From the IMG/VR virus record IMGVR_UViG_2648501730_000017: DNA of 8,455 nt. The stretch is one strand, 5' to 3'. A program made the position numbers and the translations under genes. Numbering within the stretch: position 1 is the stretch's first letter; every line of letters begins with the position of its first letter. The stretch comes from a virus (Duplodnaviria > Heunggongvirae > Uroviricota > Caudoviricetes). Positions 1-8,455 of the stretch are shown here, piece by piece. The notes under the pieces are model-generated. The model was not told the DNA's origin. It did not search any database and saw only the letters and a list, made by a program, of their open reading frames with translations.

Positions 1-1545
1 TCACAGATAAAACACTCTCCAGGAAACCCGGGGCGGTTCAACCATATATTTGAGAGCACTTATCGCCTGCTGGGCGGATATTACTTTCATTAAAGGATAG
101 TGTTTAAAAACAATGCCATTCATAAAATAGATATCACAGGTTTTATTATCCGTATTAATTATGATTTTTTCGAATGTTTTATAGGCAAGTGTACGGCATA
201 ACTCTCGTCCATTTTTACTGGTTAAGTCAATAGCATAAAAATCACTGAATGAATTTACACCTTTACTCTTCAAAGTTTTCAATGATACCGAAGCCCTTCT
301 TAATTCCTTATCTAATAGTCTTATTTTCTCTGCTATAGCGGTAACTTCAGGCGCGACAGACAATGCAACGATTAAATTATTAATTTTCATCTGAAGCTCA
401 ATAATTTTTAACTCTAAAGTTTCATTAGCATCTTTCTTGTTTTCAACTGGTTGAATTTTGCTACAATTAAAAAGCAATTCATTAATGATATTATAATCAA
501 CCAAATCTCTTTTTATTGATGGCCTGTCACATCGATGTAATCTTCTCATCGGACAAACATAATAGCCATGCAAACTTCCAGATACCGCATGAACAATCAT
601 GGTATTACCACAAGCCTCACACTTCATAACTGTTCGAAGTAGATTTATTAGCATAGGATTCTTGCTACTATTGCTAATACCAAAAGGTGCCAACCGAATT
701 TCCTGTACAGCGTAAAACAAATCATCTGATATGACTCTGGGATAATAGCCAGCGATTTCACTTATCCCTTTCCCTCTTGCACGATATGAAGGTACGCATA
801 TACCTATCAGAGCTTTATTCGCTAATAATTTTTCAATTACAGAAGGTCCCCATGCACTTTCTTTTCCTGAGAAATTCTTTACAGCATGATCATTTAAATA
901 CTTGGCTATTGCATTCAATGAGCGCCTTTCCATCCTGAGTTTAAAAATTAGCTCAATAGTTTTCACCCTGTCGGGGTCTGGAACAAAAGCCGTTCTTTTG
1001 TCATCTAAGGAGAGCCATCTCGGACAAGACGCCGTCATAATCGTACCTGATTCCAGTGCATCCTGCCGTTTTTTCTTCCATGATAATTTAACCCGACTTG
1101 ACTTTATCTCGCTTTCTTCATTTGCCCTTTGTGCTATAAGTATGGCTTTTATTAATGAATATGGCTCATTCAAAGAGTCAATGTTATAGACTGTATTGTC
1201 GCAAAGAGTTATAACATCAATACCGTGATTCAAAATCAATTTCAGACGTTCAATCGCTTCACCGACTTTTTCTCTTGAAAGTCTGTCCAGACTTTCAACT
1301 AACAATGTAGTTCCTGGCAATATATAACCATGCTCTATAGCATCTAAAAATTCCGAAAAAGCTCCTGATTGTGCATGCTTTCCTTTGAATGCACTTAATC
1401 CTAAATCTTCATATGTTATGGTATCAAGATAATAATCACTATTTACCTTTAACCATTCAGCAATAAGTCTTCTCTGTCGGTTTAATGAGTCACCAGACAT
1501 CTGACCTGGTGATGAAAATCGCATATATGCTATGGCTTTTTTCAT
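1..1545 (-). CDS. ybcK: Large serine recombinase (resolvase-type catalytic domain, recombinase domain, Cys-rich zinc ribbon); complete 514 aa, stop codon at positions 1-3
   Basis: Supplied translation starts MKKAIAYMRFSSPGQ...SLNRQRR, a serine-recombinase catalytic motif; 514 aa length and the Cys cluster CEACGN...YYVCPMRRLHRCDRP fit large serine recombinases. Position next to emrE matches the emrE-ybcK arrangement of DLP12 as I recall it. Gene is visibly AT-rich relative to the lambda-like genes. Confidence 0.8.
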   Translation of the reverse strand: MKKAIAYMRFSSPGQMSGDSLNRQRRLIAEWLKVNSDYYLDTITYEDLGLSAFKGKHAQSGAFSEFLDAIEHGYILPGTTLLVESLDRLSREKVGEAIERLKLILNHGIDVITLCDNTVYNIDSLNEPYSLIKAILIAQRANEESEIKSSRVKLSWKKKRQDALESGTIMTASCPRWLSLDDKRTAFVPDPDRVKTIELIFKLRMERRSLNAIAKYLNDHAVKNFSGKESAWGPSVIEKLLANKALIGICVPSYRARGKGISEIAGYYPRVISDDLFYAVQEIRLAPFGISNSSKNPMLINLLRTVMKCEACGNTMIVHAVSGSLHGYYVCPMRRLHRCDRPSIKRDLVDYNIINELLFNCSKIQPVENKKDANETLELKIIELQMKINNLIVALSVAPEVTAIAEKIRLLDKELRRASVSLKTLKSKGVNSFSDFYAIDLTSKNGRELCRTLAYKTFEKIIINTDNKTCDIYFMNGIVFKHYPLMKVISAQQAISALKYMVEPPRVSWRVFYL

Positions 1546-1730
1546 GGTGACACCTGCTAACGTATGCTTTTATAAACCTTAGTGGTGGGATATAATTTTT
1601 GTTTAATTTTTATTTAAAAAGACAATTAAGGTCACATTATCTTGAATATACAACAATAATCGTATTGCAATTTTCTTACGCCATAATCTTGAAAGCACAA
1701 AAGAACACATAAAAAAAATAAAGACATTAA

Positions 1731-1771
1731 CAAAAAGCATAAAACGAGGCTCATATAAATATAAGAGCCTC
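1731..1771 (-). terminator. Putative intrinsic terminator about 30 nt downstream of emrE
   Basis: Inverted repeat GAGGCTC (1746-1752) / GAGCCTC (1765-1771) with a 12-nt loop; on the minus strand the hairpin is followed by GTTTTATGCTTTTTG (T-rich). Confidence 0.5.
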
Positions 1772-1802
1772 CATATTTTAGTCGTTTAGAAACAAATTAT
1801 TT

Positions 1803-2135
1803 TTAATGTGGTGTGCTTCGTGACAATAGATTAATAACCAACACACCGGCACAAATTAACATCATGCCTATAATGGCTGGCAGGTCCAGCCGTTGGCCGA
1901 AAAGTCCCCATGACAGTAAGCTAATCAGGACAATACCGACTCCTGACCAGATAGCATAAGCAATCCCTGTAGGAATATAAGCCAGCGTCTGAGCTAATAA
2001 CCAGAATGATGCACAATAACAAATAATTGTACCAACAGATGGCCATAACCGTGTAAAACCTTCTGAAAACTTCATTAAGGTTGTACCAATGACCTCTGCA
2101 AGTATTGCACCACCAAGATAAATATAAGGGTTCAT
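1803..2135 (-). CDS. emrE: SMR-family multidrug efflux transporter EmrE (110 aa)
   Basis: Translation from the internal Met reads MNPYIYLGGAILAEVIGTTLMKFSEGF...LLSRSTPH, matching E. coli EmrE as recalled, including the conserved membrane Glu in helix 1. AGGAAAG ribosome-binding site 8-14 nt upstream of this ATG; the 128-aa ORF in the track is an upstream extension. Confidence 0.9.
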   Translation of the reverse strand: MNPYIYLGGAILAEVIGTTLMKFSEGFTRLWPSVGTIICYCASFWLLAQTLAYIPTGIAYAIWSGVGIVLISLLSWGLFGQRLDLPAIIGMMLICAGVLVINLLSRSTPH

Positions 2136-2202
2136 AGCATATTCTTTCCTGTTCAAACTGGAGAGAATTGTACTACAGTTTGAACTCAACTCACCTGTTT
2201 CA

Positions 2203-2504
2203 TCATTGTGTACCCATTGATGTTCTTTTATATACCCTCAATACCCGTTTCATCGCGGCACTCTGGCGACACTCCTTAAAAATCAGATTCGTGCTCACCT
2301 TTCCTTCCCGTTCTTCTCTGGTAGCGAACCGGTAATACACCGTTCGCCAGACCTTACCATCAACGACCAGGATTCCTGCCCGGCCATTTTAGCCGCAGCC
2401 TGATTTATGCTGGTTACGGTTGCGCCTGTTACCGCGGCAACGTCCTGCGCACAGAAGTTCTTATGAGTCCCCAGGTAATGAATAATTGCCTCTTTGCCCG
2501 TCAT
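2203..2504 (-). pseudogene. ren: ren (lambda Ren-like) inactivated by a frameshift; first ~41 codons intact, remainder readable in another frame
   Basis: ORF 2295-2504 begins MTGKEAIIHYLGTH...VTGATVTSINQAAAKMA as lambda Ren does, then diverges. Shifting frame near 2385 (GCCGGGCAGG where lambda, as recalled, has GCCCGGGCAGG) restores Ren-like ...KVWRTVYYRFATREEREGK...KECRQSAAMKRVL. Start overlaps the P stop by 4 nt as in lambda. Confidence 0.6.
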
Positions 2505-3202
2505 ACACTTGCTCCTTTCAGCCCAAACTTAGCTTTGATTTCTGCGATCTTCGCCAGAGCCTGTGCACGATTTAGAGGTCTACCGCCCATGGCAGGAAGT
2601 TGTTTTACTGGTTCAGGTATAGCCTCACCACGGTTAATTCGCGCGATCATACAGGACAGTTCATCGGCAGCCTTGCGCCGTAATTCCGCGTCAGTCAGCG
2701 CATTGGCTCGCATGTTCTGGTACAGGTTGGTAACCAGCCAGTAGTGCGCGTTTGATTTCCACGGATAAGACTCTGCATCCGGATACAGCCCGCGCTTCCG
2801 GCAATACTCGTAAACCATATCAACCAGCTCGCTGGCGTTTGGCAGCCCGGCGGTAACGGATGCTTCTTCCCGGCACCAGGCGACAAACTGCCCGGGTGAT
2901 GGCAGGAATGGTCGATTCTGCCGACGGGCTACGCGCATTCCTGCGTTAACCTGTTCCATTGTGGTGATCCCGTTTTCCCGGAAAGCCAGAACCCACTGGC
3001 GGCGGATTTCGTTCAGTTCATTCTGGTCACGGTTAGCCAGGCTCGCCGGGAAAGTTGCCAGTAACTGGCTGAACACACCGTTGATGATCTGCGCTACCTG
3101 CTGTACCTGTGGCTTTTCGTCGTACTGTTCCGGCATGTTGTTGGCGATCCGACGCATCTGCTCACAGTCAAAGTTAACCATTTGTGCGGCGATGTTTTTC
3201 AT
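2501..3202 (-). CDS. P: Lambda-type replication protein P (DnaB helicase loader), 233 aa
   Basis: Translation MKNIAAQMVNFD..EQMRRIANNMPEQYDEKPQVQQVAQIING...AKFGLKGASV is near-identical over its full length to lambda P as recalled; same 233-aa length; start overlaps the O stop. Confidence 0.9.
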   Translation of the reverse strand: MKNIAAQMVNFDCEQMRRIANNMPEQYDEKPQVQQVAQIINGVFSQLLATFPASLANRDQNELNEIRRQWVLAFRENGITTMEQVNAGMRVARRQNRPFLPSPGQFVAWCREEASVTAGLPNASELVDMVYEYCRKRGLYPDAESYPWKSNAHYWLVTNLYQNMRANALTDAELRRKAADELSCMIARINRGEAIPEPVKQLPAMGGRPLNRAQALAKIAEIKAKFGLKGASV

Positions 3203-4128
3203 AAATCCACCCCATAAATCCAGTCAGTGTTTGTCAGGTCCAGTTTTGATTTTCCGGCTGTCACTCCAGCCTGTTGCTTGTTACGGTTGATTTCGAGTTG
3301 GGTCCACTTGTCACGGAGTTTGGCCGGACTTAGCACGTTACCGGACCAGAAGTTGTCCTGGCATGCCCAGCGGAACAGCACGCACATGTCGCGGTGGTTA
3401 CGTCCGTCACGTTCACGCATCAGGCGGATATCGTTAGCCCACCCTGCAAAATTCGGTTTTCTGGCTGATGGCGCGATGGTCTTCACCATGTCAAACATCC
3501 ACTCTGCGGCGGTCAGGTCTTCTGCTGTCCCCCACTTGCTGCCGCTCTGAATTGCAGCATCCGGTTTCACCACAGGAAGATCGTTTTCTGGTTGGTCAGA
3601 GGATTCGCCAGAATTCTCGGACGAAAAAGGTTTTATATTGTCTTTTGTTAGTTTGTCTTTTGTGTTTACCTGATTCGGGTAAACGCCTTTACCTGATTTG
3701 GGTAAACTTTTTTTACCTGATTCAGGTAAATTTACCTCTTTCAGGTAAACTTTATTTTTCTTACCTGATTCGGGTAATGTTGACCATTCACTGACCACAT
3801 TATTAATGCCGGTATTCCGCCCGCTCTGAATAAAAATCCCACGCTTTACCAGAACACTTTTTGCAGCAGAACACTTGTGCGGCAATATCCCGGTTAATTC
3901 GGAAAGTTGCTCGTTGCTAACCCAATCCAGTTTTTTATTAAAGCCATATGTTTTGCGCATGACAGCCAGAAAGACCAGAAGCTGGTGCTGTGTTAATCCG
4001 GCCAGCATCACAGCTTCCAGCAACTCATTTGCAATGCGCGTATAACCATCATCGAGATCTGCCACGCGCGGCTCCTTTTGTGCCGCATCCGGCACTGGAA
4101 AATTGAATATCTCAGCAGTGTTTGCCAT
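3199..4128 (-). CDS. O: Lambda-type replication initiator O (309 aa): N-terminal iteron-binding domain diverged from lambda, C-terminal P-interacting domain lambda-like
   Basis: C-terminal half ...ESSDQPENDL.VVKPDAAIQSGSKWGTAEDLTAAEWMFDMVKTIAPSARKPNFAGWANDIRLMRERDGRNHRDMCVLFRWACQDNFWSGNVLSPAKLRDKWTQLEINRNKQQAGVTA...LDLTNTDWIYGVDL matches lambda O as recalled. N-terminus from the internal Met (MANTAEIFNF...VADLDDGY) aligns with the lambda O start and has a GGGAGG ribosome-binding site 5 nt upstream; the 339-aa track ORF is an upstream extension. Confidence 0.85.
   Translation of the reverse strand: MANTAEIFNFPVPDAAQKEPRVADLDDGYTRIANELLEAVMLAGLTQHQLLVFLAVMRKTYGFNKKLDWVSNEQLSELTGILPHKCSAAKSVLVKRGIFIQSGRNTGINNVVSEWSTLPESGKKNKVYLKEVNLPESGKKSLPKSGKGVYPNQVNTKDKLTKDNIKPFSSENSGESSDQPENDLPVVKPDAAIQSGSKWGTAEDLTAAEWMFDMVKTIAPSARKPNFAGWANDIRLMRERDGRNHRDMCVLFRWACQDNFWSGNVLSPAKLRDKWTQLEINRNKQQAGVTAGKSKLDLTNTDWIYGVDL
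3667..3779. repeat. Replication origin iterons: five ~18-bp direct repeats inside O, flanked by an AT-rich stretch (about 3620-3666)
   Basis: Read directly: TACCTGATTCGGGTAAAC (3667-3684), TACCTGATTTGGGTAAAC (3690-3707), TACCTGATTCAGGTAAAT (3714-3731), TACCTCTTTCAGGTAAAC (3733-3750), TACCTGATTCGGGTAATG (3762-3779). Each has TACC...GGTA internal dyad symmetry. Location inside O next to an AT-rich tract mirrors lambda ori. Confidence 0.8.
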
Positions 4129-4214
4129 AATTCCTCCCGCAATGAGTGTGTTACGATTTGCACCTGAAAGTCGGTTCTGTTCCAGCAGACCGGCTTTCGC
4201 CATTTCTGAACCTG

Positions 4215-4754
4215 TCATATCGCCCCCAGCATGGTAGTAACCATCGCCATCAATGGACCAGCCAGATCTGGGTCCACACGAAACATCGACACAATACCTT
4301 CACTAATTTCCTTCAGTTTCTGGTGGCGTGGTGCGTTGAGAATGACAGCCTGTTTTGCCTCACTGAGTTCCTTTTCCATTTCAGCCAACCTAGCCATGAA
4401 GCTATCCTGCTCAACCAGGTAACCGCGATATTCCAGCGGTAGTACCGCCAGAATTGCCGGGGTCAGTTCACGCACGTTATTTCGGTATTTTTCAGAATCG
4501 AATTTGTTATCGAGGAAGCGGAACAGCTTCTGGCGTGCACGGCTGACATCATCAGGGAAATCGATGGTGCCGCCGCCCTGCTCCCGATACTCATTCACAA
4601 TGAGTGTGGCAACGACATCCTGATTATCTACAGCCGACCAGGCGCGGACGGCATCACGGATTTTTTCGTGGCCTGGCACCTGTTTTGTTTGAGAACGATT
4701 TATCACCGCAGTCGGGCTAAATCCGCTAGTCTGTTGGTATGTAAGTGGTTGCAT
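4215..4754 (-). CDS. YdaT-like protein (about 179 aa) in the cII position; probable CII functional analogue
   Basis: Sits between the cro-like gene and O where lambda has cII, but is about twice the length of lambda CII. GGAG ribosome-binding site 7 nt upstream of the ATG. Family assignment is from recalled Rac / CP-933P ydaS-ydaT arrangements, not from a search. Confidence 0.5.
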   Translation of the reverse strand: MQPLTYQQTSGFSPTAVINRSQTKQVPGHEKIRDAVRAWSAVDNQDVVATLIVNEYREQGGGTIDFPDDVSRARQKLFRFLDNKFDSEKYRNNVRELTPAILAVLPLEYRGYLVEQDSFMARLAEMEKELSEAKQAVILNAPRHQKLKEISEGIVSMFRVDPDLAGPLMAMVTTMLGAI

Positions 4755-4798
4755 AATTGACTCCTTTAGTTTGAATTGACTGTTAAGTTGATTGCTTA

Positions 4799-4811
4799 TT
4801 GTTAAAGAGCG
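4799..4811 (-). promoter_or_regulatory. boxA-like element in the nutR position, just downstream of the cro-like stop
   Basis: Minus-strand sequence CGCTCTTTAACAATAAGCAATCA contains GCTCTTTAACAAT, matching the E. coli rrn boxA (TGCTCTTTAACAATTTATCA, as recalled) at 13 consecutive positions; placement matches lambda nutR. Confidence 0.5.
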
Positions 4812-4823
4812 TGAAATGGAAAT

Positions 4824-5054
4824 TTAAGCTGCGTTCTTTTCGGTGTGTGGAAACAACTTCGGAAGATCCGGGCGAATCTGGTATGCCTTCACTACTCCAC
4901 CAGTAGCCGTAACAATGCTGCCGACATGTTCAGGGGATACCTTTGCTTTGTTGTGAAGCCACTTATAGACGGCCTGCTGTGAAACTTCGCAAGCAGCGCC
5001 CAGTTTCTTTTGTGAACCAACGATATTGATCGCTGTTTTGATAGCTGGGTTCAT
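4824..5054 (-). CDS. Cro-like small HTH regulator (76 aa), first gene of the rightward early operon
   Basis: Small protein transcribed divergently from the cI-like repressor; GGAGG ribosome-binding site 5 nt upstream of the ATG; the segment QKKLGAACEVSQQAVYKWL is helix-turn-helix-like. Confidence 0.6.
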   Translation of the reverse strand: MNPAIKTAINIVGSQKKLGAACEVSQQAVYKWLHNKAKVSPEHVGSIVTATGGVVKAYQIRPDLPKLFPHTEKNAA

Positions 5055-5081
5055 AACAACCTCCGTGGTTAATTTGAATCA

Positions 5082-5110
5082 AGATTAAAACTATGGTTGT
5101 TTTTAGTCAA
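5082..5110 (-). promoter_or_regulatory. pR-like promoter: -35 TTGACT, 17-nt spacer, -10 TAATCT, with a 17-bp operator filling the spacer
   Basis: Reverse complement of 5082-5110 reads TTGACT-AAAAACAACCATAGTTT-TAATCT, about 25 nt upstream of the cro-like ATG. Confidence 0.5.
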
Positions 5111-5150
5111 CAACCATTTTCGTTTGATGGAATAAAACCTTGGTTGTACA
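5087..5150. promoter_or_regulatory. OR-like tripartite operator region between the cro-like and cI-like genes
   Basis: Three related sites: 5087-5103 AAAACTATGGTTGTTTT (strongest, in the pR spacer), 5107-5123 TCAACAACCATTTTCGT (weaker), 5134-5150 AAAACCTTGGTTGTACA (next to the cI-like start). Shared half-site AAAACAAC / GTTGTTTT. Confidence 0.5.
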
Positions 5151-5158
5151 TTTGGACT

Positions 5159-5848
5159 ATGAAAACAACACTCTCAGAAAGACTTAAAGAAGCCAGATTA
5201 GCGCGAGGCCTTACACAAAAGGCGCTTGGGGATTTGGTCGGGGTTAGCCAGGCTGCTATTCAGAAAATCGAAACAGGGAAAGCTAATCAAACAACTAAAA
5301 TCGTGGAGATCGCGAACGCTTTGGGTGTGCGCGCAGAATGGTTATCTTCTGGCGTTGGAAATATGTCAGACAGTACAGTGCAACCAATACAATCAACTGT
5401 CAGCCATTCCAAATACTTCAAGATTGACGTTCTTGATATAGAAGTCAGTGCTGGGCCGGGAGTCATCAACCGTGAGTTTGTAGAAGTTCTACGCTCGGTT
5501 GAGTACTCGTTTGACGATGCTCGTCACATGTTCGATGGTAGGAAGGCGGAAAATATCCGCATCATTAACGTGCGTGGTGACAGCATGTCAGGAACGATCG
5601 AACCAGGTGATCTGCTGTTCGTTGATATCACAGTTAAATCTTTCGACGGTGATGGTATCTATGCGTTTCTGTACGACGACACAGCCCATGTAAAGCGCCT
5701 GCAAATGATGAAGGATAAGCTGCTGGTCATCTCTGATAACAAAAGCTACTCACCGTGGGACCCGATCGAGAAAGACGAGATGAACCGGGTGTTCATCTTC
5801 GGTAAGGTTATTGGGAGCATGCCGCAGACATATAGGAAGCATGGGTAG
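5159..5848 (+). CDS. cI-like prophage repressor (229 aa): N-terminal HTH-XRE domain plus C-terminal S24 LexA-like autopeptidase domain
   Basis: From the internal Met: MKTTLSERLKEARLARGLTQKALGDLVGVSQAAIQKIETGK (HTH), then GDSMSGTIEPGDLLFVD with a downstream HVKRL Lys, the Ser/Lys dyad of S24 peptidases. No Shine-Dalgarno before 5159, and a weak TTGATG / TACATT promoter would start transcription near the ATG (leaderless, as lambda cI from pRM). The 5093 start would overlap operator 1. Confidence 0.8.
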   Translation: MKTTLSERLKEARLARGLTQKALGDLVGVSQAAIQKIETGKANQTTKIVEIANALGVRAEWLSSGVGNMSDSTVQPIQSTVSHSKYFKIDVLDIEVSAGPGVINREFVEVLRSVEYSFDDARHMFDGRKAENIRIINVRGDSMSGTIEPGDLLFVDITVKSFDGDGIYAFLYDDTAHVKRLQMMKDKLLVISDNKSYSPWDPIEKDEMNRVFIFGKVIGSMPQTYRKHG

Positions 5849-5969
5849 TACCAATTAAAAATTATCAACTGGGCATTGTGCTCATTCAGTAAAGAACTAA
5901 TTCCTATCTTTGCTCTAGGTAGTAATATTAAGCCACCGCAATAATATCTTTACCTAACGGCGTAAGAAT

Positions 5970-5996
5970 CCCGGTCACCGTGCCGGGTTTTCTTTT
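5970..5996 (+). terminator. Putative intrinsic terminator about 120 nt downstream of the cI-like gene
   Basis: CCCGG (5970-5974) pairs with CCGGG (5983-5987), followed by TTTTCTTTT. Confidence 0.45.
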
Positions 5997-6091
5997 GCCC
6001 TCCCCTCATCACACACACCGTTAAAAAAACCACCATAACCTCGCTTCAGTTATCGCTATGCGATTCAAGTCACAAAATAAATCCATCCTAA

Positions 6092-6166
6092 ATACAACCA
6101 GTTATATCTAAAACAACCAATAAAACAACTTTTGTTGTTGACGATAAAACAACTATGGTTTTAAAT
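6092..6166 (+). promoter_or_regulatory. OL/pL-like operator-promoter cluster driving the kil-gam-bet operon
   Basis: Repeated AAAACAAC motifs (ACAACCA 6094-6100; AAAACAACCA 6110-6119; AAAACAAC-TTTT-GTTGTTG 6122-6140). Promoter TTGACG (6138-6143), 17-nt spacer, TTAAAT (6161-6166); the spacer carries AAAACAACTATGGTTTT (6146-6162), near-identical to the operator in the pR spacer. Confidence 0.5.
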
Positions 6167-6443
6167 AAGTTCATCGCAACAACACAACGATACGGCAACT
6201 ACCTGATTCACCGTTGCGATGACCGCTTAGATCCGCAGTTTGAATTTCAGCAGGCTTCGGGGAGTGCGAGGGGTGAAACGGACGCGTGAACGTCGGTGTG
6301 ACCAGCTGAAATTAACTCAACATTTCATACCTTAGTCGCTTCAACGAGGCGGCTTAGTTATGACAACCGGCGGCCATCCACCGCCTGAATACGCGCAGAA
6401 GTCTCTATATGTTCAGCAGCCCAGCTTACGGGCAGGAGTTTTT

Positions 6444-6650
6444 ATGGTTCATCAACATTATGGAACGCAGACCGTTAATCGAGGTGCGGTCATGCCAGGA
6501 ATGCTGGTCAAACACAAAGATGGTACCTGGACTGCATCAGCTAATTTACGCGGACGGCTTTATCTGCATCGCGGCATCGAGCGCACTTATACCCGTGATT
6601 TGCTCGTGGAAGTTTTTCTCGACGGACGCGGTAACGGCCTGAATCACTAA
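6444..6650 (+). CDS. Small protein (68 aa from this start) in the kil position; possibly a Kil-like host-killing / division-inhibitor protein, identity unverified
   Basis: AGGAG ribosome-binding site 5 nt upstream of ATG 6444; alternative in-frame starts at 6492 (GAGGTG upstream) and 6501. The ORF ends 76 nt before gam, where lambda has kil. I cannot reliably recall a homologue. Confidence 0.3.
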
Positions 6651-6725
6651 TCCCCTTTCCTGTTTTCCTAATCAGCCTGGCATTTCGCGGGCGATATTTT
6701 CACAGCCATTTTCAGGAGGTCAGCC

Positions 6726-7022
6726 ATGAACGCTTATTACATTCAGGATCGTCTTGAGGCTCAGAGCTGGGCGCGTCACTACCAGCAGATCGCCCGTGAA
6801 GAGAAAGAGGCAGAACTGGCAGACGACATGGAAAAAGGCCTGCCCCAGCACCTGTTTGAATCGCTATGCATCGATCATTTGCAACGCCACGGGGCCAGCA
6901 AAAAAGCCATTACCCGTGCGTTTGATGAAGATGTTGAGTTTCAGGAGCGCATGGCAGAACACATCCAGTACATGGTTGAAACCATTGCTCACCACCAGGT
7001 TGATATTGATTCAGAGGTATAA
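6726..7022 (+). CDS. gam: Gam (RecBCD nuclease inhibitor), 98-aa short form
   Basis: [94 protein letters not shown] matches the C-terminal 98 residues of lambda Gam as recalled. AGGAGG ribosome-binding site upstream. No in-frame ATG upstream before a TAA at 6669-6671, so only the short form can be made. Confidence 0.85.
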
Positions 7023-7027
7023 AACGG

Positions 7028-8455
7028 ATGAGTACAGCACTCGCAACGCTGGCAGGGAAGCTGGCTGAACGTGTCGGCATGGATTCTGTCGACCCACAGG
7101 AACTGATCACCACTCTTCGCCAGACGGCATTTAAAGGTGATGCCAGCGATGCGCAGTTCATCGCATTGCTGATCGTCGCCAACCAGTACGGCCTTAATCC
7201 GTGGACGAAAGAAATTTACGCCTTCCCTGATAAGCAGAACGGCATTGTTCCGGTGGTGGGCGTTGATGGCTGGTCCCGCATCATCAATGAAAACCAGCAG
7301 TTTGATGGCATGAACTTTGAGCAGGACAATGAATCCTGTACATGCCGGATTTACCGCAAGGACCGTAATCATCCGATCTGCGTTACCGAATGGATGGAGT
7401 TGCACGACAAGCGAAAAGCAGAACTCTGGCGAGTAGAAAAGCTAGGGGATTTACCTGATGTCACTTTTGAAGAGGCCTGCCTAAGATGGCTTGAGGAAAA
7501 AGCTGATAAAAAATCTCTCGATTCAGATAAAAGCCGGATTGAGTTCTGGCTTGAACATTTTGAGGGTATAAGGCTTAAAGATATCTCGGAGGCAAAGATT
7601 TACTCTGCTGTAAGCAGAATGCATAACAGAAAGACGAAAGAAATATGGAAACAGAAAGTTCAGGCCGCCATCAGGAAAGGTAAAGAACCGCCTGTTTATG
7701 AACCAAAGCCAGTATCAACTCAGACAAAGGCAAAGCATCTTGCCATGATAAAGGCCATTCTCCGTGCTGCAGAACGCGACTGGAAGTGGCTGGAAAAAGC
7801 GCCTGTCATCAAGATACCAGCGGTCAGAAACAAGCGAGTCAGATGGCTGGAAAAGGAGGAAGCAAAACGCCTTATTGATGAGTGCCCCGAACCACTGAAA
7901 TCTGTCGTCAAGTTTGCGCTGGCAACTGGTCTGAGAAAGTCGAACATCATAAATCTGGAATGGCAACAAATCGACATGCAGCGACGAGTTGCCTGGGTGA
8001 ATCCAGAAGAGAGCAAATCAAACCGCGCCATTGGTGTGGCGCTGAACGATACCGCCTGTAAAGTGTTGCGTGATCAAATAGGCAAGCATCACAAATGGGT
8101 GTTTGTACATACCAAGGCGGCTAAGCGAGCAGATGGAACATCAACGCCTGCGGTCAGGAAGATGCGCATCGACAGCAAGACATCATGGCTATCAGCTTGT
8201 CGTCGTGCAGGAATTGAAGATTTCCGTTTCCATGACCTCAGACACACCTGGGCAAGCTGGCTGATTCAGTCAGGCGTCCCATTATCAGTGCTTCAGGAAA
8301 TGGGCGGATGGGAGTCCATAGAAATGGTTCGTAGGTATGCTCACCTTGCGCCTAATCATTTGACAGAGCATGCGAGGAAAATAGACGACATTTTTGGTGA
8401 TAATGTCCCAAATATGTCCCACTCTGGAATTATGGAGGATATAAAGAAGGCGTAA
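7028..8455 (+). CDS. In-frame fusion: Bet (lambda Red-beta) residues 1-123 joined to a tyrosine integrase (IntD / P21-family like) lacking roughly its first 35 residues; probable deletion product that removed the bet 3' end, exo, xis and the int 5' end
   Basis: Residues 1-123 ([122 protein letters not shown]) match lambda Bet as recalled. From about nt 7397 the protein switches to integrase sequence (ELHDK.KAE.WRV.KLG..PD.TFE.AC.RWLEEKA.KKSLD.DKSRI.FWL..F...), with the catalytic Arg in TGLRKSN, HDLRHTW and the Tyr in MVRRYAHL. Gam stop to bet start geometry (aggtataaaacggATG) is as in lambda. Confidence 0.8.

Follow-up and report, generated by a model that had tools for sequence, protein, structure and literature searches.

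The first 2212 nucleotides of the window (the whole 8,455-nucleotide stretch of DNA analysed here) are very probably the emrE-ylcJ-ybcK accessory block of a DLP12-type lambdoid argU prophage, consisting of two adjacent and independent AT-rich morons. Their place would be a hyper-mosaic slot of the rightward early operon, with ren on one side and the nin genes on the other. They probably reached it by the mosaic recombination at gene boundaries that is usual among lambdoid phages, rather than by an insertion of emrE and ybcK together mediated by a large serine recombinase (LSR). The emrE-ybcK region of DLP12 is already known and annotated, and to that extent what we describe is an ordinary rediscovery. 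There is also value in a correction, as an ORF that ends neatly at the edge of the window seemed intact, yet it is chimeric with an insertion sequence (IS). The features are collected in Table 1.

Table 1. Features of the window, by position and strand
Feature	Positions	Strand	Evidence
IS3-family insertion sequence, terminal 40 nt (right inverted repeat)	1..40		100% match to 17901-17940 of related locus L002
ybcK native part (codons 1-502 of 508), LSR	38..1545	-	Pfam domains, conserved residues, AF2/Foldseek, dN/dS
AT-rich ybcK leader with frameshifted small ORF ylcJ	1546..1802	-	257 bp, GC 0.272
Intrinsic-terminator-like hairpin (GAGGCUC...GAGCCUC + GUUUUAU)	1740..1780	-	~25 nt past emrE stop
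emrE module	1795..2212	-	~91-92% identical, over exactly these positions, to the emrE-ybcL-ybcM locus by fliE that lacks ybcK
emrE, 110-aa small multidrug resistance (SMR) efflux transporter	1803..2135	-	PF00893, E 4.8e-35; phrog_1395 'moron/QacE'; RefSeq annotation in relatives
ren pseudogene	2203..2504	-	1-nt deletion near nt 2382, from alignment to the intact ren of L002
bet(1-124)::intD(36-387) in-frame fusion	7028..8455	+	Pfam RecT and Phage_integrase in one ORF; blastp against Bet and IntD

A compositionally foreign, non-core block

The initial annotation had placed a change to AT-rich DNA at about nt 2200, and the composition agrees. GC is 0.359 over nt 1-2212 and 0.483 over nt 2213-8455 (z = 10.1), and a single change point fits best at nt 2234. 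The segment differs from the flanking prophage also in codon usage, GC3 being 0.29 in ybcK and 0.34 in emrE compared with 0.47-0.59 in P, O, gam and int. Within L001, a related 26-kb locus that comprises most of the prophage and flanking host genes, it is the lowest-GC stretch of 2.2 kb. The emrE-ylcJ-ybcK block is compositionally foreign, with the atypical base composition of a phage moron. The genes originally called in it, namely emrE and the LSR gene ybcK with a 257-bp spacer of 27% GC, are borne out.

The edge of the block is a mosaic joint at the stop codon of ren (nt 2203-2234), and homology to ren alone in other prophages begins at 2230. In lambdoid prophages without the segment, namely those of E2348/69 and ETEC1738, ninB comes directly after ren. 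Absence from related phages and a joint at a gene boundary are further characteristics of a moron. The suggestion that a moron lies downstream of ren can therefore be kept. The suggestion made along with it, of a separate element with its own recombinase, has to be given up, since no repeats bound the segment and its modules are separable.

The order ren-emrE-ylcJ-ybcK recurs in K-12 MG1655, in 1399 of the 5426 complete E. coli genomes examined, and in isolated coliphages, with 12 Escherichia phage records at a protein identity of at least 95%; these coliphages have tyrosine integrases of their own. One of these, coliphage 4A7, has its own int and xis beside an icd fragment. Isolated coliphages, K-12 and roughly one in four complete E. 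coli genomes thus share the block unchanged. We see it as a unit only inside DLP12-type phages and never elsewhere, and a widespread phage lineage, which has tyrosine integrases and uses argU or icd as integration sites, carries it as a fixed component. According to the initial annotation, conservation as core phage genes would speak against foreign cargo. The block is indeed widespread in the DLP12-type lineage, yet it is non-core and is missing from the prophages in which ninB follows ren.

It is also built from separable modules. In 2626 of the 5426 complete genomes emrE adjoins ybcL-ybcM without ybcK. None of the 20 or more ybcK-family loci in other genera carries emrE, and these loci lie in different slots of phages or plasmids. 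Nevertheless, emrE and ybcK occur together in 1399 of the 1423 ybcK-positive E. coli genomes (~98%), and given such co-residence in a phage lineage, they may have been acquired together in an ancestor. Because the copy at the fliE locus is ~9% diverged, both an "inserted" and a "deleted" ybcK fit. Downstream of ybcK there are three alternative cassettes. They share one boundary, a hairpin before ylcH/ybcN, and their ybcK-side breakpoints, which differ between pairs, lie 40, 283 and 309 bp past the stop; varying breakpoints of this kind are expected from mosaicism. An integron-like capture by YbcK was also considered, but this variable boundary fits ordinary mosaicism better.

The YbcK recombinase and the decay of this prophage copy

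The ORF at nt 1-1545 (minus strand) encodes 514 aa with Resolvase, Recombinase and Zn_ribbon_recom domains (PF00239, E 5.7e-19; PF07508, E 2.3e-14; PF13408, E 8.1e-08). Residues R9, S11, D87, R88 and R91, the last three in the pattern D87-R88-x-x-R91, are invariant across 17 homologues of 41-61% identity, as are the zinc-ribbon cysteines C309, C312, C331 and C339. Searches of PDB sequences, either with YbcK alone or with a 17-sequence profile, returned no recombinase and only a spurious RING2 match, which made a comparison of folds necessary. The AF2 model (pLDDT 78.8) contains helices 373-397 and 402-428, in agreement with the coiled coil and the overall fold of LSRs. Its top Foldseek matches are full-length serine integrases: 9dxd (E 1.9e-18), PhiC31, Bxb1 and 4kis. 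Judged by its domains, its residues and its modelled fold, ybcK encodes a genuine LSR, in which the residues of the catalytic site and of the zinc ribbon are all in place. Its dN/dS of 0.07, and that of 0.05-0.10 for the family, correspond to strong purifying selection. PADLOC gave no match to a defence model for YbcK, EmrE or the proteins of the neighbouring cassette.

With the phage serine integrases PhiC31, Bxb1, Listeria A118/LI and the integrase-RDF complex 9dxd, YbcK shares a catalytic domain with a serine nucleophile, a long alpha-E helix, a recombinase domain followed by a four-cysteine zinc ribbon, and a predicted coiled coil (Foldseek E 1e-14 to 1e-18), although at only 13-20% identity. 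Unlike the genes of these integrases, ybcK lies off the prophage junction, in a phage that integrates by a tyrosine integrase, and YbcK has no known directionality factor or att sites.

The copy in the window had been described as complete, with its stop at positions 1-3. That stop is derived from an IS; the native protein has 508 aa, and its last six residues are lost. The matching stretch of L002 is the outer end of an IS and adjoins an annotated IS3-family transposase. The element presumably resembles IS629/IS1203. Its end, as found at nt 1-40, occurs ~19,000 times in 4420 genomes, at chromosomal and plasmid sites. Here the final 12 codons of a chimeric ORF, and its stop, come from this IS end, nt 38-40 being common to native ybcK. 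Genomes with an uninterrupted ybcK align from nt 38 only, and all encode 508 aa ending in ...YMVDGEIYF, whereas the ORF of the window ends in ...YMVEPPRVSWRVFYL. Residues 503-508, which form a conserved C-terminal beta-strand (E505-507 in the model), have been swapped for 12 IS-encoded residues. What the window holds is thus an IS-chimeric 514-aa allele and not an intact, full-length LSR. The same junction between IS and ybcK was found in strain C325 only.

The rest of this prophage copy has decayed as well, with ren frameshifted and the integrase fused to bet. In the relative H1, which by BLAST is 100% identical to the window over 38-2400, both ren and ylcJ are also annotated as frameshifted. 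The tyrosine integrase that the initial annotation ascribed to the prophage is there as a domain, but the ORF is a truncated IntD joined to Bet. The junction, at 7396-7398, marks a deletion of ~2.7 kb in which exo was lost together with the 3' portion of bet, the 5' end of int and the small ORFs that had separated exo from int (any xis included); the junction is present in 0 of the 5426 complete genomes. With its tyrosine integrase truncated and fused to bet, and the bet-int region, in which xis would be expected, deleted, the prophage is locked in place.

Some suggestions can be made regarding expression. In K-12, the untranslated leader upstream of ybcK is a Rho/NusG-dependent terminator, "t_ybcK", that silences ybcK (PMC4150792). 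Production of YbcK may require that this termination be overcome, as phage antitermination could do after induction. Once made, it would catalyse conservative site-specific recombination at putative sites. The gene emrE (dN/dS 0.01-0.16) encodes a proton-coupled SMR efflux pump. The hairpin past its stop folds as RNA with -14.6 kcal/mol (z = -2.8 compared with shuffles), and as emrE has a terminator hairpin of its own, it is plausibly expressed in the lysogen. A hairpin 5' of emrE exceeds shuffles in stability by no margin (z = -0.3). A promoter scan of the region gave 9 promoter-like sites, with 9.0 +/- 2.6 expected by chance from shuffled sequence, and an Rfam scan of the whole window gave no match.

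Alternative origins of the block

Several other explanations can be suggested. The best of them, which we nevertheless consider rather unlikely, is that ybcK by itself forms a self-mobilising "solo" LSR cassette of ~1.6-1.8 kb that enters phage and plasmid moron slots across Enterobacterales. Such a cassette would comprise the gene together with flanking DNA, up to ~250 bp on the 5' side and 0-85 bp on the 3' side, and it would have neither terminal inverted repeats nor target duplications. The ybcK of DLP12 would then be one insertion between emrE and the downstream cassette, and emrE would be a mere neighbour.

Much of what is found beyond E. coli agrees with this. When 20-kb loci of the family are compared, the LSR unit is the only DNA shared in three pairs (1808 bp at 93.9%, 1649 bp at 83% and 1602 bp at 76%), and in the two pairs examined for context the surroundings differ: a lambdoid early region as opposed to AAA_25/SDR genes in Pantoea, and the tail end by tmRNA as opposed to a place downstream of O and P in Atlantibacter. 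Two diverged copies of the gene exist on one Pantoea plasmid, with homology running from 12 nt before the ATG to ~83 nt past the stop. The position of the gene relative to a conserved pair of genes (80-aa/UmuD'-like) depends on the genus; the gene is found on either strand, and also solitary on plasmids. The low dN/dS of the family points in the same direction. Movement as such a sharply bounded, gene-sized unit is a hint of self-mobilisation over purely passive mosaicism.

Against self-mobilisation, the edges of the unit differ between the pairs that share the LSR alone (12 to 247 bp upstream), the number of ybcK copies per genome is 1-2, and no isogenic pair of filled and empty sites was found. 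Illegitimate recombination followed by selection would also yield joints at gene boundaries, for any moron. Sites recognized by LSRs are ~40-50 bp long, with imperfect inverted half-sites around a 2-bp core. The flanks of ybcK contain no candidate att sites, conserved end motifs or inverted-repeat half-sites, and aligning the flanks of 24 members of the family revealed no family-wide motif. A 13-nt direct repeat, TTTAGAAAYAAAT (12/13), present at the ybcK stop and at the joint on the emrE side, was considered as att and rejected, as it lies off the other breakpoints. We also looked at Ca. Pantoea alvi, where P might have been split by the LSR; there is a full P and a second, partial P, with no clean insertion. 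As a working analogy only, the unit could be likened to the IS607 family, whose members are gene-sized and have no terminal inverted repeats or target duplications. Their TnpA, in contrast to the large YbcK, belongs to the small serine recombinases and has a MerR-type DNA-binding domain at its N-terminus, and transposition of ybcK is putative.

It is more doubtful still that YbcK proteins are working phage recombinases, serving either as the integrase at the tail end of a prophage or as a Gin/Pin-like invertase of tail-fibre or host DNA. The copy in the nin region of E. coli would then be a second integrase, or an invertase, with a phage function. In Atlantibacter, Yersinia, Erwinia, Ewingella and Pantoea, homologues do lie just past tail-fibre/Caudo_TAP genes, at or near the junction of prophage and host, and one of these tail-end homologues is convergent with the tmRNA gene. 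PHROG places YbcK under "integrase", and its fold matches serine integrases. However, in Erwinia two phage genes separate the LSR from host DNA, and no duplication of the tmRNA 3' end was found within 10 kb of the Atlantibacter homologue. Copies in the nin region share their prophages with tyrosine integrases, which explain integration at argU/icd; in Pantoea, such a copy coexists with a tyrosine integrase at the prophage end.

A role as invertase meets other difficulties. PinE, PinQ, PinR and Gin/Cin have the serine-recombinase catalytic domain in common with YbcK, whose relatives often follow directly on tail-fibre assembly genes, in the place of gin/pin genes. But small serine invertases are ~190 aa long with a C-terminal HTH, whereas YbcK has 508 aa with recombinase and zinc-ribbon domains and is not of the Hin/Gin/Pin type. 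In six homologous loci, no inverted repeats of 18 nt or more enclose a tail-fibre segment in such a way that it could invert, and no suitable inverted repeats were found in E. coli. The literature on PinQ and PinR indicates that recombinases of cryptic prophages can be active.

By far the least credible proposal is that emrE, spacer and ybcK are one integrative element or transposon, similar to Tn4451 with TnpX or SCCmec with Ccr, inserted by its LSR and still excisable: its AT-richness, the sharp GC step at the ren stop codon, the intact catalytic residues and the frequent co-residence of the two genes would suit it, but there are no direct or inverted repeats at the ends, the emrE module exists alone by ybcL-ybcM and is missing from ybcK-family loci of other genera, the downstream boundary is variable, the block is restricted to DLP12-type phages, and the LSR of the window is disrupted at its C-terminus. 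At nt 2203-2234 and past the ybcK stop (read in intact relatives), the direct and inverted matches are short and at chance level. The block does resemble Tn4451 (TnpX), Tn5397 (TndX) and SCCmec (CcrAB) in that an LSR adjoins a gene for drug efflux or resistance. In contrast to them, it has no defined ends flanking recombinase and cargo, the two do not move together (ybcK-less emrE in E. coli, homologues without emrE elsewhere), and it never occurs outside phage. The idea of an element with its own integrase fails because emrE and ybcK are modular.

Relation to DLP12 and meaning of YbcK

We therefore return to two independent morons in a DLP12-type prophage. The cryptic prophage DLP12 of K-12 has the same genes in the same order and orientation (ren-emrE-ylcJ-ybcK-ybcL-ybcM) in the same argU/intD setting, with 99-100% identity over ybcK, which carries the label "recombinase family protein" there. 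What each copy has lost is different. The prophage of the window keeps P, O, a cro-like gene, a cI-like gene, gam and part of bet, which in DLP12 of K-12 are lost or reduced to fragments. An IS3-family IS interrupts the 3' end of ybcK in the window, whereas IS3 interrupts ren in K-12; the frameshift in ren and the fusion of bet to intD by deletion are features of the window copy.

The block is like other lambdoid morons and nin-region modules in being non-core, AT-rich and bounded by gene borders, in having alternative cassettes in its slot, and in its presence in viable phages. A large site-specific recombinase is nevertheless unusual cargo for a moron. With YbcK, the best-studied of bacteria carries an LSR that is strongly conserved and that Rho keeps silent, and members of the YbcK family move from one phage or plasmid context to another as units of the size of a gene. 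Should YbcK prove self-mobilising, it would represent an LSR element of minimal size, from which compact integrases might be obtained.

The prophage and its AT-rich block

The window corresponds to the early region of a lambdoid prophage of the DLP12 type, which is integrated at argU, and it reads opposite to the K-12 orientation (see the table). Annotation in related complete genomes names ybcK, ylcJ, emrE, ren, P, O ... bet, exo, intD and tRNA-Arg, and the order ren-emrE-ylcJ-ybcK-ybcL-ybcM is also found in E. coli K-12 MG1655. Very probably, the AT-rich segment is the already known accessory block of DLP12. It would consist of two adjacent morons, the emrE efflux pump and ybcK, a Rho-silenced gene for a large serine recombinase (LSR). 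It is not an integrative element that carries emrE, and its copy of ybcK is truncated by an insertion sequence (IS).

Features of the window (nt) and of related loci used for comparison (L numbers)
Feature	Location	Strand	Basis or source
514-aa ORF with Resolvase, Recombinase and Zn_ribbon_recom domains	1-1545	-	ORF calling, Pfam
emrE	1803-2135	-	ORF calling, Pfam
ren	2203-2504	-	ORF calling, Pfam
P, O, YdaT-like gene, cro-like gene		-	ORF calling, Pfam
cI-like repressor, gam		+	ORF calling, Pfam
Single ORF with RecT and Phage_integrase domains	7028-8455	+	ORF calling, Pfam
Cassette slot directly downstream of ybcK	L002 5127-6941; L001 10579-11943; L004 41378-42997		
Cassette 3' of ybcK: ybcL-ybcM			K-12 and strain C5
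Cassette 3' of ybcK: P22AR-C-domain gene and hypothetical gene			Z1323HEC0422
Cassette 3' of ybcK: esterase, opposite orientation			phage 4A7
Gene pair, 80-aa protein and UmuD'-like protein	L007 9092-9684; L010 12207-12772; L014 9212-9845		

The initial annotation described a change to AT-rich DNA at about nt 2200 and a very AT-rich spacer of roughly 250 bp, and both descriptions hold. GC content is 0.359 over nt 1-2212 versus 0.483 over the remainder of the window (z = 10.1), with a single change point whose maximum-likelihood position is nt 2234. GC3 is 0.29 in ybcK and 0.34 in emrE versus 0.47-0.59 in the adjacent phage genes. The spacer (nt 1546-1802) is 257 bp long with a GC content of 0.272. 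In a 26-kb related locus that covers most of the prophage and flanking host genes, the emrE-ybcK block is the 2.2-kb stretch of lowest GC.

The prophage around the block is decayed. Its ren is a pseudogene that, compared with the intact allele of strain C5, lacks 1 nt near nt 2382, and ren is annotated as frameshifted in the relative H1, which is 100% identical to the window over nt 38-2400 (BLAST). The tyrosine integrase previously attributed to this prophage is present as IntD residues 36-387, fused in frame to Bet residues 1-124 at a joint (nt 7396-7398) with 3-nt microhomology. The deletion of about 2.7 kb behind this fusion runs from within bet, whose 3' part is lost, through exo and the small ORFs before int (any xis included) into the 5' end of int. 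The junction was not found in any of the 5426 complete genomes of the collection.

YbcK, its leader and the insertion sequence at its end

All three Pfam LSR domains of YbcK score above threshold, and the catalytic residues R9, S11 and D87-R88-L-S-R91-E92, as well as four zinc-ribbon cysteines, are invariant in 17 homologues of 41-61% identity. Besides the catalytic domain and a long alpha-E helix, the AlphaFold2 model (mean pLDDT 78.8) contains a recombinase domain made of helices, a zinc ribbon, a coiled coil of two helices and, C-terminally, a small alpha/beta domain. In Foldseek it best matches serine integrases over their full length, namely 9dxd (E 1.9e-18), PhiC31, Bxb1 and 4kis, a Listeria LSR in complex with DNA. 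PHROGs places YbcK in the category 'integrase'; sequence searches of the PDB gave no match and PADLOC has no model for it.

The recombinase had been taken as complete, and this did not hold. An IS of the IS3 family has inserted 19 nt before the native stop of ybcK, and the window starts within its terminal inverted repeat. Nucleotides 1-40 are the outer end of this IS, with 100% identity to a stretch that adjoins an annotated IS3-family transposase in a relative with intact ren (L002 17901-17940); the same 40 nt recur at about 19,000 places in 4420 genomes. The IS ends, TGAACCG[C/T]CCCGGGAATCCTGGAGA... and ...TCTCCAGGAAACCCGGGGCGGTTCA, are presumably those of IS629/IS1203. Genomes with uninterrupted ybcK align to the window only from nt 38, and all of them encode a protein of 508 aa ending in YMVDGEIYF, while the ORF in the window ends in YMVEPPRVSWRVFYL. 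Therefore, the IS supplies both the stop (nt 1-3) and the 12 codons before it. The residues lost form the C-terminal beta-strand (E505-507 in the model), with a hydrophobic pattern conserved throughout the family. The identical IS::ybcK junction occurs in one complete genome only, that of strain C325, whose annotation gives the 514-aa product as ybcK; in the same strain the IS has also placed intD beside ybcK.

As the untranslated region ahead of ybcK, the AT-rich spacer acts in K-12 as a Rho/NusG-dependent terminator, and ybcK mRNA is elevated in rho and nusG mutants (PMC4150792). Overexpression of ybcK leads to higher sabinene tolerance in BL21 (PMC7181518); the literature we found assigns no recombination substrate to YbcK. 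The spacer also contains the small ORF ylcJ, frameshifted in the allele of the window.

Joints of the block in E. coli

Comparison with prophages that lack the block, as proposed in the initial annotation, puts a sharp joint on the ren side. The prophages of E2348/69 and ETEC1738 run directly from ren to ninB and their homology to the window starts at nt 2230, which supports the reading of a moron inserted downstream of ren. The block itself is modular. Of 5426 complete E. coli genomes, 2626 have a second locus, emrE-ybcL-ybcM without ybcK; hence, many strains have emrE outside DLP12. The only copy examined for position, a remnant about 9% diverged in E. coli AVS0171 (L003 6290-7342), adjoins fliE. 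The fliE locus is homologous to the window over exactly nt 1795-2212 (about 91-92% identity). Relative to this locus, DLP12 has an extra 2083 bp consisting of ybcK, 247 bp upstream and 309 bp downstream. Since the two loci are 9-10% diverged, this is compatible with either insertion or deletion. Neither target duplication nor inverted repeats were found at the ybcK junctions, and emrE and ybcK are separable modules; the suggestion of a separate integrative element comprising both thus does not hold. A terminator-like hairpin (nt 1740-1780, minus strand, z = -2.8) directly follows emrE. It lies within DNA specific to the ybcK-containing arrangement, so emrE at the fliE locus must terminate otherwise.

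Downstream of ybcK, three alternative cassettes have one common boundary, a conserved hairpin CACCGGAG...CTCCGGTG before ylcH/ybcN. Their ybcK-side breakpoints vary by pair (40, 283 and 309 bp past the stop), for which reason we rejected site-specific capture of the cassettes. The pattern is ordinary lambdoid mosaicism.

We found ybcK in 1423 complete genomes, 1399 of them with the ren-emrE-ybcK arrangement; the K-12-type downstream cassette is present in 675. YbcK also occurs at no less than 95% identity in 12 Escherichia phage records, including Turner, PhiR70_1, 1W and 4A7. The complete lambdoid genome of 4A7 (49 kb) encodes an integrase and an excisionase of its own, next to an icd fragment. 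From this distribution, the block belongs to the accessory cargo of a phage lineage whose integration relies on tyrosine recombination.

Relatives in other genera and the movement of the gene

Full-length homologues of YbcK are present in Atlantibacter, Yersinia, Erwinia, Ewingella, Citrobacter, Kluyvera, Pantoea, Lonsdalea and others, and none among the loci examined outside E. coli has emrE beside it. Four contexts can be described. The first is the early or nin region of lambdoid prophages: in P. dispersa, whose prophage has a tyrosine integrase at its end; in Atlantibacter RC6, after O and P; and in Ca. Pantoea alvi, on the opposite strand, flanked by a full-length lambda-P-like gene and by a second P copy that is partial and frameshifted (L033 9253-9693, 12152-12859). 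The latter arrangement points to a scar left by recombination between two lambdoid phages. The second is directly after tail-fibre or assembly genes, at or near the prophage end, in Yersinia, Atlantibacter (adjoining a tmRNA gene), Erwinia (where another gene is the last of the phage), Ewingella and two Pantoea-like loci. Tail-end homologues in three genera are accompanied by a conserved gene pair for an 80-aa protein and a UmuD'-like protein (start MGFPSPAxDY), located before the recombinase in Atlantibacter and Ewingella and after it in Erwinia. In the third, the gene lies by itself on plasmids, with metabolic or defence genes around it, e.g. in Duffyella and Pantoea sp. S18. The fourth is non-phage: in C. 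koseri (L013 8145-13567) the homologue lies between a 555-aa pilin-like gene, with a faint Shufflon_N match, and degenerate copies, close to a MobA/MobL relaxase. No repeats of an invertible segment were found near the homologues.

How does such a gene move? In three pairs of 20-kb loci the LSR unit is the sole shared DNA: 1808 bp at 93.9% identity between P. dispersa S68 and Ca. P. alvi (223 bp 5', the gene and 56 bp 3'), 1649 bp at 83% between P. dispersa and Pluralibacter (about 127 bp 5' and the gene), and 1602 bp at 76% between two Atlantibacter loci (68 bp 5' and the gene). Its surroundings differ in both pairs examined. Plasmid NZ_CP142690 of Pantoea sp. S18 has two family copies of 89.6% identity, one frameshifted (L100 6980-8521, L101 19110-20631), whose similarity is sharp-edged, from 12 nt before the ATG to about 83 nt past the stop. 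The corresponding unit of E. coli is 247 + 1527 + 40 bp. Illegitimate recombination at gene boundaries followed by selection, the standard moron model, fits these units. That they are minimal self-mobilising LSR cassettes seems unlikely to us: a unit shared alone between otherwise different loci would agree with it, provided that att sites are too weakly conserved to be seen, but terminal inverted repeats, target duplications and a common end motif are absent from all the units compared. In Edaphovirga cremea, two contigs (L030 and L036, one of just 994 bp) end inside a YbcK-family gene, as would be expected if the gene were a multi-copy repeat at which the assembly breaks.

The dN/dS ratio is 0.07 among E. 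coli ybcK alleles; for pairs from Ewingella and from Pantoea it is 0.05-0.10. Judged by these substitution patterns, the YbcK family is kept by selection.
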